Positions 41,823 to 43,384 are shown, counted from the whole stretch's first letter. The stretch: DNA of 63,288 nucleotides, filler included, from Reclinomonas americana ATCC 50394 (GCA_048213135.1; 15 parts of 15 records of this genome joined end to end with filler, not necessarily neighbours in it), one strand, 5' to 3'. Numbers and translations are program-made. The notes: generated from the sequence alone by a model not told the origin.

Positions 41823-43384
41823 GTGGCGCTTCTGTGCATCATCTTTGGCGTGCGCGGAGTGATTGTGTCGCTCGGCTTGGCCGTGCTGTTGTACTTGTTG
41901 CGTTTTTTTGGTTGGTTGTTCGCCTGCTGCCTTGTGTTGTGTTGCTGACGTGTCGTTGGTGGCAGTATGAACAAGTACTACCCGGCGACGGCCGCCGACC
42001 AGGCTCCGGAGCAGGGTGGTAGCGCGACGACCACGGGTATTCCGGGGCAAGCGGCTGGCAAGTCGGCTGGAAAGAAGACGGGCAGTGGTGCTCCGAAGGT
42101 GAGGGGGGAAAAGGGGAAAGGGGATGAGGGAAAGGGGGGAAAGGGGGAAAAGCGGGAAAGGGGAGAAGGAGATTGGGGGGGAAAGGGGAACGGGGAGAAG
42201 GAGATTGGGGGGAAAAGGACGAGGAAGTGGAGAAGGAGGTGGGATGAAGACAGAGAGAGCAAAAGGAGGCGAGATCTGGAGTGGAGAGGGGAGAAGGAGA
42301 TTAGGGGGAAAGGGGACGAGAGGTGGATAAAGAGATGGGATAAAGGACAGAATGCGGGAGGCGAGACAAGAAGTGGAGAAAGGAGAAGGAGATTGGGGGG
42401 AAAAGGACGAGGAAGTGGAGAAGGAGGTGGGATGAAAGACAGATTGCGAGAGAGCAAAAGGAGGCGAGATATGGAGTGGAGCGGGGAGAAGGAGATTGGG
42501 GGGACAAGGGACGGGAACAGCGGAGAAGGAGGTGGGACAAAGGCAGAATGCGAAAGAGCAAAAGGACGAGACAAGAAGTGGAGAAAGGAGAAGGAGATTG
42601 GGGGGAAAGGGGACTAGAAATGGAGAAGGAAGTGGGATAGAAGACAGAATGTGGGAGGCGAGACAAGAAGTGGAGAAATGAGAGGGAGATTGGGGGAAAG
42701 GGGACGAGAGGTGGATAAAGAGATGGGATAAAGGACAGAATGCGGAGAGCGAAAGGAGCCGAACTAAGGAGTGGAGAAATGAGGGGGAAGGAGACAAAGG
42801 CAAGGGTATATGCATATGTTCGTGTCTCCGCCTCGTTTCTCTCTCGCCCTTCCCTTCTCGACTTCTCTCGCCGTTCTTCGCATGCTGCATATCACGACCC
42901 TTTCCTCTTGTCTCATTTCTCCCTTCTCTAGTCGTTCTCTCGCTGTTCATTGCTTCATCTCGCTTCCCTTTTCTTTCTCTCGCTTTCTCCTCGACTCGAT
43001 ACGTCCTTCCTTCCATTTCGTCTCGCTTCCTCTCTCTCTGCCCCCCTTCTCGACTCGGTTCTCTCGTCATGCTTCGCGTACGTCCCGTTCCTTTCTGTCT
43101 CGTTTGTGTCACTCTCGTCTTCCATTTCTTCCATCGCCACCCTTCTCTCCTGCGCTCACTTCCCTGGCCACTAACAATCCCCTCCTCTCTCTCTCTCTCT
43201 TCCCTCCCACACACACACACACAGCTGGGTAGCGGCGGCGCTCGTGGCGGTCCCAAGATGATGAGCATGAGCGATCTGCCTGAACCGTCCAGCTGAGGGC
43301 CGTTGCGTCCTCCCACCACCATCGCCCTTTCGCCTTTCACCTCACCTCACTTCACCACCACAACCCCACAGGTCCGGCTGCTAA
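41823..43384 (+). CDS. Candidate small membrane selenoprotein (SelK/SelS-like architecture); exons 41823-41896, 41966-42098, 43225-43301, 43372-43384; UGA(Sec) at 43294-43296; 5' exon(s) missing
   Basis: Spliced product VALLCIIFGVRGVIVSLGLAVLLYFMNKYY..GKSAGKKTGSGAPKLGSGGARGGPKMMSMSDLPEPSS-U-GPSGC*, with a SECIS-like hairpin ~110 nt after the TAA. Confidence 0.7.
42110..42760. repeat. Purine-rich intronic tandem repeats
   Basis: Recurrent ggagattggggg..aaggacgag..gtggagaaggaggtggga units. Confidence 0.75.

Follow-up and report, generated by a model that had tools for sequence, protein, structure and literature searches.

The DNA analysed here (the window, 63,288 bases in all) consists of 15 short contigs separated by spacers of the form N44-TTAATTAATTAA-N44, and its source is an intron-rich eukaryote with a G+C content of 56%. 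Microsatellites and periodic ACG/T-like junk are frequent at contig ends, as at 41429-41530 and 41631-41680, which suggests contigs that were broken at repeats yet kept in scaffold order. The top identity of an eIF6 exon in a collection of 5.8 billion proteins amounts to 82% among the best 120 of 2769 significant matches; since the identity reaches at most this value, the organism and its close relatives are absent from that collection. In addition to eIF6, the window holds two closely related WD40-repeat genes and a set of genes recognized by Pfam (Table 1), none of the latter being selenium-related. Positions 17803-18336 and 21759-22286 hold further WD40 fragments, and two long open frames with BNR/Asp-box (Sortilin-Vps10-like) repeats occupy 771-4651 on the + strand, the first of them terminating in Cys-rich, EGF-like repeats. 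The Pfam survey covered 142 of 239 filtered open reading frames (ORFs; minimum length 70 aa, minimum entropy 3.8): of the 150 longest, eight were dropped by hand because they were antisense to identified genes or situated within the repeat-bearing intron 3 of the gene described below. Among these 142 ORFs, neither a protein of the selenocysteine (Sec) machinery such as SPS2, PSTK, SepSecS, EFSec, or SBP2 nor any known selenoprotein family gave a Pfam match; across the whole window, a tRNA scan returned no genes and Rfam, at gathering score, no families. TGA serves as an ordinary stop in the window, where both WD40 paralogues terminate at this codon and eIF6 terminates at TAA, and a global reassignment of TGA was rejected on the evidence of the two WD40 genes.

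At 40860-43384 on the + strand, a gene model of five exons, the first of them putative, comprises 342 nt in frame and 113 codons. Read in its spliced form, the model contains in-frame stops only at codon 108 (TGA) and codon 114 (TAA), codon 108 being the candidate for Sec and codon 113 encoding Cys. Once intron 4 is removed, five codons lead from the TGA to the TAA, and the last residue is this Cys. The reading that had first drawn attention to the locus from its sequence alone described the TGA at 43294, the GTTGCG at 43302, an interval of 70 nt, and an in-frame Cys followed by TAA, and all letters and coordinates agree with that description. The ATG at 40860 is the first one past an in-frame TGA at 40833; the end of exon 1 abuts a GTTGCG donor (40905) in a phase matching that of exon 2, which itself begins at an acceptor and has no ATG upstream within its own contig. 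Intron 1 includes the N44-linker-N44 gap 41531-41630, so that its 918 nt represent an assembled length only. Because (CA)n runs stand at both contig ends, the gap probably falls inside a single microsatellite. Judged across this gap, 40860-40904 is probably the true first exon. Intron 3 is made up of purine-rich repeats of ~100 nt (six copies of a 66-nt unit and four of a 142-nt unit), followed by a pyrimidine-rich half. Purine-rich low-complexity sequence resembling it also extends across 14057-16065, and weak matches to plant miRNA families of Rfam in intron 3 and in 41137-41355 were dismissed as repeat artefacts.

Table 1. Features of the window, with positions counted from its first base
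Feature	Position	Strand	Remarks
Spacers between contigs	4856-4955, 9052-9151, ... 51644-51743		N44-TTAATTAATTAA-N44
Nucleotide-diphospho-sugar transferase	10161-10982	+	Pfam-recognized
Two closely related WD40-repeat genes	18574-19425, 24520-25572	+	Different contigs; identical C-terminal sequence and TGA
TLDc	26172-26615	-	Pfam-recognized
Alpha/beta hydrolase	32703-34592	+	Pfam-recognized
Putative exon 1	40860-40904	+	ATG and 14 hydrophobic codons, phase 0; on the contig preceding the assembly gap
Intron 1	40905-41822	+	918 nt as assembled; GTTGCG donor, CTGGCAG acceptor; microsatellite-rich
Exon 2	41823-41896	+	Hydrophobic (transmembrane) exon
Intron 2	41897-41965	+	69 nt, GTTGCG...GGCAG, AG-free; CTGAC ~16 nt 5' of the acceptor
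Exon 3	41966-42098	+	Gly/Ala/Lys-rich tail begins; proposed frame top of three
Intron 3	42099-43224	+	1126 nt; GTGAGG donor at 42099, CACACAG acceptor
Exon 4	43225-43301	+	End of tail, ...SS-U-GP, with candidate Sec codon
In-frame TGA	43294-43296	+	Proposed Sec codon, 108 of 113
Intron 4	43302-43371	+	70 nt, GTTGCG...CCACAG, AG-free
Exon 5, coding part	43372-43384	+	Completes Pro, then Ser-Gly-Cys and TAA (43382-43384)
Larger 3'UTR structure	43428-43580	+	Three-way junction enclosing hairpin 43461-43488 and the SECIS-like stem
SECIS-like element, type 2 form	43493-43547	+	Own scanner and folding
7TM receptor fragments (family 3; secretin/Dicty-CAR type)	45298-45882, 58751-59185	+	Pfam-recognized
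GH43	55069-56428	-	Pfam-recognized
Cys/Met PLP enzyme	60842-61970	+	Pfam-recognized
Sites of the 63-70-nt AG-free class	32739, 41897, 43302, 53400, 61034 (+); 58030, 53055 (-)	+ and -	GTTGCG donor, CAG acceptor

The status of intron 4 is best judged from the other introns that open with the same hexamer. GTTGCG occurs 31 times on the + strand and 37 times on the - strand. On the + strand, the first AG follows within 33 nt at 24 of the 31 sites, at 63-70 nt at five, and beyond 100 nt at two, with none at 34-62 nt; on the - strand, only two of the 37 distances (63 and 68 nt) fall within 63-70 nt, the others including 45, 50, and 52 nt. The 63-70-nt class hence accounts for 7 of 68 GTTGCG sites, all seven with a CAG acceptor, and from random starts only ~3% of first-AG distances lie within 60-69 nt. 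Homology verifies two of the seven introns. Removal of eIF6 intron 1 (53400-53465, + strand, 66 nt; ATG GCG ATC C/GTTGCG...CACAG/GT) restores the conserved N-terminus of eIF6, which substantiates the earlier remark that its donor is the one used after the TGA. The intron of the PLP enzyme (61034-61097, + strand) joins PF01053 positions up to ~99 to positions 100-154, the first residue of the exon from 61098 aligning with position 100 and an earlier exon corresponding to positions 60-87. A further two members are introns 2 and 4 of the present gene, and 32739, 58030, and 53055 are candidates. Like eIF6 intron 1, intron 4 is rich in CTCAC/TTCAC; its GTTGCG begins 5 nt past the TGA, and the first AG downstream is that at 43370-43371. 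These sequence features and the class they define can be read directly from the DNA, and 43302-43371 has the appearance of a genuine member of the class of short introns in this genome. An intron that begins 5 nt past a true stop codon is unusual, one inside a coding region is ordinary. The UGA is situated well under ~50 nt from the last junction and, by the usual rule, would not elicit nonsense-mediated decay if it were read as a stop.

The protein predicted from the spliced model carries an N-terminal hydrophobic anchor of ~35-40 residues, the remainder being a Gly/Ala/Ser/Pro/Lys-rich tail that ends SS-U-GPSGC. Kyte-Doolittle means over 19 residues range from 2.1 to 2.9 over residues 1-40 and are negative from ~residue 37-55 on, which confirms the transmembrane segment that had been proposed. 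The Gly/Lys-rich tail of the same proposal is likewise found: the string from residue 42, 73 characters long (71 residues plus the marks for the TGA and the final stop), contains G 15 and K 6 times, along with A 10, S 9, and P 8. Searches for relatives used pieces of this protein. No Pfam family was matched at E<=10 by exons 2, 3, or 4 or by one piece with flanks, PF10961, PF06936, and DUF4605 included, and two read-through pieces and exon 1 gave only two unrelated matches, both of them to read-through sequence (E = 0.37 and 0.44). A word-based search with the read-through of exon 2, the intron, and exon 3 yielded three candidates with shared words, none of which scored, and the corresponding search with the read-through of exon 4 yielded no candidates. 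With a piece as the query, phmmer returned no matches at E<=0.001 among 1,835,955,588 representative proteins, and a protein query against metagenome contigs produced 597 pattern matches, none of them confirmed. As no homologue was found with exon or read-through queries, none could be identified that aligns a Cys or Sec with the TGA. With queries restricted to single exons and read-throughs, these blanks constitute weak evidence. The published titles and abstracts covered here showed no similar family. SelK itself, described as the most widespread eukaryotic selenoprotein (PMC2375036), has diverged such that similarity searches are reported to miss it even in Drosophila (PMC3753652), and its genes are said to be typically left unannotated (PMC1557815).

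To assess coding potential, codon usage was modelled on the window's conserved genes (seven training segments, 2083 codons, with two of the seven segments, 53641-53757 and 53901-54075 or ~97 of the 2083 codons, misframed). At -1.8 bits, a score close to zero on the absolute scale, the spliced frame lies at the 96th percentile among random windows of 342 nt; the two alternative frames score -57.4 and -28.9 bits. Exons 2, 3, and 4, and likewise the complete CDS, each score higher in the proposed frame than in either alternative, exon 2 ranking first among the exons (+0.37 bits per codon versus -0.32 and -0.04 in its other frames). Introns and UTR score negatively in every frame, A occupies the third position in 6 of 114 codons, and the stretch past the TGA, with only five codons, is too short for its coding potential to be measured. 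In addition, four consecutive splice junctions preserve a single frame, and three of them share the GTTGCG donor. It might be argued that no functional gene exists at this site: in DNA that is rich in repeats and poorly assembled, the exons could be frames open by chance or the remains of a pseudogene, or the TGA could be an assembly error. The contig measures 3.2 kb, is flanked by microsatellites, and carries periodic junk at its ends, exon 1 had to be placed across a gap, the absolute codon score is near zero, and the piece query found no homologue among the representative proteins, all of which would fit such an explanation. Against it stand the single frame maintained across four junctions, the verified donor hexamer at three of these, the superiority of the proposed frame in exons 2, 3, and 4 and the CDS, and the non-coding scores of the introns in all frames. 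The absence of a gene seems quite improbable.

Downstream of this gene, a stem-loop with the features of a type 2 SECIS element is located 108 nt past the TAA, ~130 nt downstream of the TGA in the spliced mRNA. Its core is formed by AUGA (43493-96) and, on the 3' side, GA (43546-47) followed by U, with which a U.U pair and tandem G.A pairs can form on the evidence of the sequence. Helix 2 (43497-43508/43534-43545) has 11 bp and one U/C mismatch, an unpaired AAA (43511-13) stands in a bulge 14 nt past the AUGA, and an apical mini-stem pairs CCCC (43515-18) with GGGG (43528-31). The candidate was first spotted by eye, and the limits of our own scanner ([AG]UGA, a core-adjoining helix with a minimum of 8 pairs, AA left unpaired 9-15 nt from the core, and a 3' GA) were fixed after it had been seen. 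With these limits, 43493-43547 is the sole match on both strands of the window (124,112 searchable nt). Three hundred dinucleotide-shuffled windows gave 338 matches (1.13 per window), a rate with which 40 other shuffles agree; 77 of the matches (0.26 per window) are at least as stable as the candidate. For a 3'UTR of 500 nt and one strand, ~0.001-0.005 matches would be expected by chance. We quote this figure up to 0.02 because published pattern searches have a higher background (PMC1557815, Table 1), that in T. brucei yielding 1109 SECIS matches in 29.9 Mb after energy filtering (PMC1557815). The spacing of 14 nt between AUGA and AAA fits the 14-15 reported for human elements, in which helix 2 measures 14-15 bp (PMC2761289), and the distance from the UGA exceeds the minimal functional one, given as 51-111 nt (PMC3753652). 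The 3' core reads AGAU, with A before the GA at the place where the consensus KGAW has G or U (PMC3753652).

The element forms part of a larger structure in which no canonical helix 1 abuts the core. Instead, a closing stem (43447-54/43561-68, extended by 43438-42/43569-73) lies 38 nt away on the 5' side and 13 nt away on the 3' side, with a hairpin inserted. Folded as a whole, the 153-nt structure has a minimum free energy of -54.2 kcal/mol, compared to -41.3 +/- 3.8 for shuffles (z = -3.42; 0 of 200 equally stable); the 61-nt hairpin alone is of ordinary stability (z = -1.18; 22 of 200 shuffles fold equally well). Rfam searches at E<=10 detected no SECIS among 26 matches in 41000-46000, six matches in 43385-43660 (276 nt), and three matches in 43484-43556 (73 nt), the last list extending down to 9.3 bits. 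A match of the apical part to Cardiovirus_CRE, at 17.5 bits versus a gathering score of 37, is spurious. Metagenome contigs contain no match to an exact 25-nt stretch of the element. Non-metazoan SECIS elements are considered the hardest to predict (PMC3753652), and lineage-specific quirks are on record, e.g., in Dictyostelium (PMC2375036).

The principal question is whether the TGA at 43294 terminates the protein. If it were a true stop, a real gene would encode a protein ending ...PEPSS, 43302-43371 would be an intron of the 3'UTR, and the stem-loop would be unrelated or due to chance. The regular use of TGA as a stop in the window, the failure of the Rfam SECIS models to match, the atypical helix 1 and 3' core base (as judged by the consensus in PMC3753652), and a window that holds neither a tRNA gene nor, in the 142 ORFs, a Pfam family of the Sec machinery are all as this explanation would have them. 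Furthermore, an extension by four codons after splicing has a chance of ~0.2 by our own estimate and is not improbable in itself. However, an intron of a verified class would then begin 5 nt past the stop by coincidence, a fold with AUGA, 14 nt, and AAA would occur no more than ~110 nt from the TAA, and on the correct strand, in spite of an expectation of ~0.001-0.02, and an architecture like that of SelK and SelS, with Cys ending the extended frame, would make a third coincidence. Intron class, positioned SECIS-like fold, and SelK/SelS-type architecture are partly independent of one another, and each would be unlikely if the TGA were a plain stop. Termination at 43294 is therefore considered unlikely, though it deserves more weight than any other objection raised here.

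A variant in which the TGA is recoded and intron 4 retained would add, after Sec, ~58 residues up to a TGA at 43471-43473, to which the unspliced frame is indeed open upon read-through. The extension, however, scores as non-coding, its end would lie only ~20 nt upstream of the SECIS core, it would overlap the lower stem of the 153-nt structure, and 43302-43371 belongs to the verified intron class. Retention of the intron is barely plausible, and recoding of the TGA with removal of the intron remains the preferred reading.

We assign a probability of about 0.65 to the view that the locus encodes a membrane selenoprotein which is of the SelK/SelS type by architecture, a term that implies membership in neither family. 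The five-exon gene would give rise to a 113-residue protein consisting of an N-terminal membrane anchor and a disordered tail with the tip SS-U-GPSGC. The TGA at 43294 would be decoded as selenocysteine via the eukaryotic SECIS pathway, with the stem-loop at 43493-43547 as the SECIS element used, and removal of the 70-nt intron would join on the last four codons. Judging from SelK and SelS, the tail may present a flexible, exposed, redox-active tip, with a potential selenenylsulfide between Sec108 and Cys113. The features described lead us to infer how the TGA is decoded, the topology of the predicted protein, and its redox function, and the reading implies no new mechanism. As to the selenoprotein originally suspected from the sequence, the intron class and the newly found SECIS-like stem-loop, correct in both position and strand, speak for it, and the homologue search, which came back blank, lends it nothing. 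A C-terminal position of Sec is described as common among eukaryotic selenoproteins (PMC1557815). It is conceivable, if doubtful, that the gene, rather than encoding a very divergent SelK, is the founder of an undescribed, lineage-restricted family of membrane selenoproteins, with a Sec-x4-Cys selenenylsulfide motif at the tip and a three-way-junction SECIS in which a hairpin is inserted below the kink-turn and AGAU forms the 3' side of the core. If the reading is true, a poorly sampled eukaryote uses selenocysteine, a protein of the SelK/SelS type is added that is beyond the reach of similarity searches, and a SECIS missed by the curated Rfam models offers a useful test of selenoprotein finders, whose performance is reported to be poorest outside animals (PMC3753652). 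Should the three-way-junction variant be true as well, the known range of eukaryotic SECIS forms would be widened.

Several known systems can be set beside the candidate. The stem-loop shares with type 2 SECIS elements (SECIS_1 of Rfam; the SECISearch3 model) the AUGA, the 3' GA, the 14-nt spacing, the bulged AAA, and the apical mini-stem, as outlined in PMC2761289 and PMC3753652; it departs from them in lacking an Rfam match, in its AGAU in place of KGAW, and in the distant closing stem and hairpin that replace helix 1. FAM241/DUF4605, which the transmembrane segment had been thought to resemble, has in common with it only a short hydrophobic G-V-R-G motif. Pfam is silent on the transmembrane exon with or without flanks, even at E<=10, and the resemblance is attributed to chance. 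With SelS/VIMP (PF06936), the predicted protein shares a membrane anchor, a disordered Gly-rich C-terminal tail, and, if the TGA is recoded, a Sec near a Cys; the latter pair forms a selenosulfide, Cys174-Sec188, in SelS (PMC3628699). SelS differs in its 189 residues, as opposed to 113, and its coiled-coil segment, and places its Cys 14 residues upstream of a penultimate Sec, whereas the terminal Cys of the candidate lies five residues downstream; the submitted pieces found no Pfam match to this family.

The assignment to the SelK/SelS type made from the sequence can be upheld for the architecture, that is, for the anchor, the Gly-rich tail, and the predicted near-terminal Sec; the submitted pieces match neither PF10961 nor PF06936, and the predicted position of Sec differs from that in both families. 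SelK has a longer N-terminal segment before its hydrophobic stretch, which only ~5 residues precede in the candidate. SelK carries its Sec in a GGUG-like context, at a distance of two or three residues from the end; that of the candidate would be the sixth from the end, in SS-U-GPSGC, with a Cys after it, and PF10961 does not match its submitted pieces at E<=10. What the candidate does share with SelK/SelG (PF10961) is a length of ~100 residues and a Gly-rich, net-basic, disordered tail behind one N-terminal hydrophobic anchor, so that hydropathy and composition agree with the single N-terminal transmembrane helix and Gly-rich basic tail of that family. The predicted Sec, moreover, lies near the C-terminus as in SelK, and the SECIS of SelK in the 3'UTR has its counterpart here in the SECIS-like candidate.
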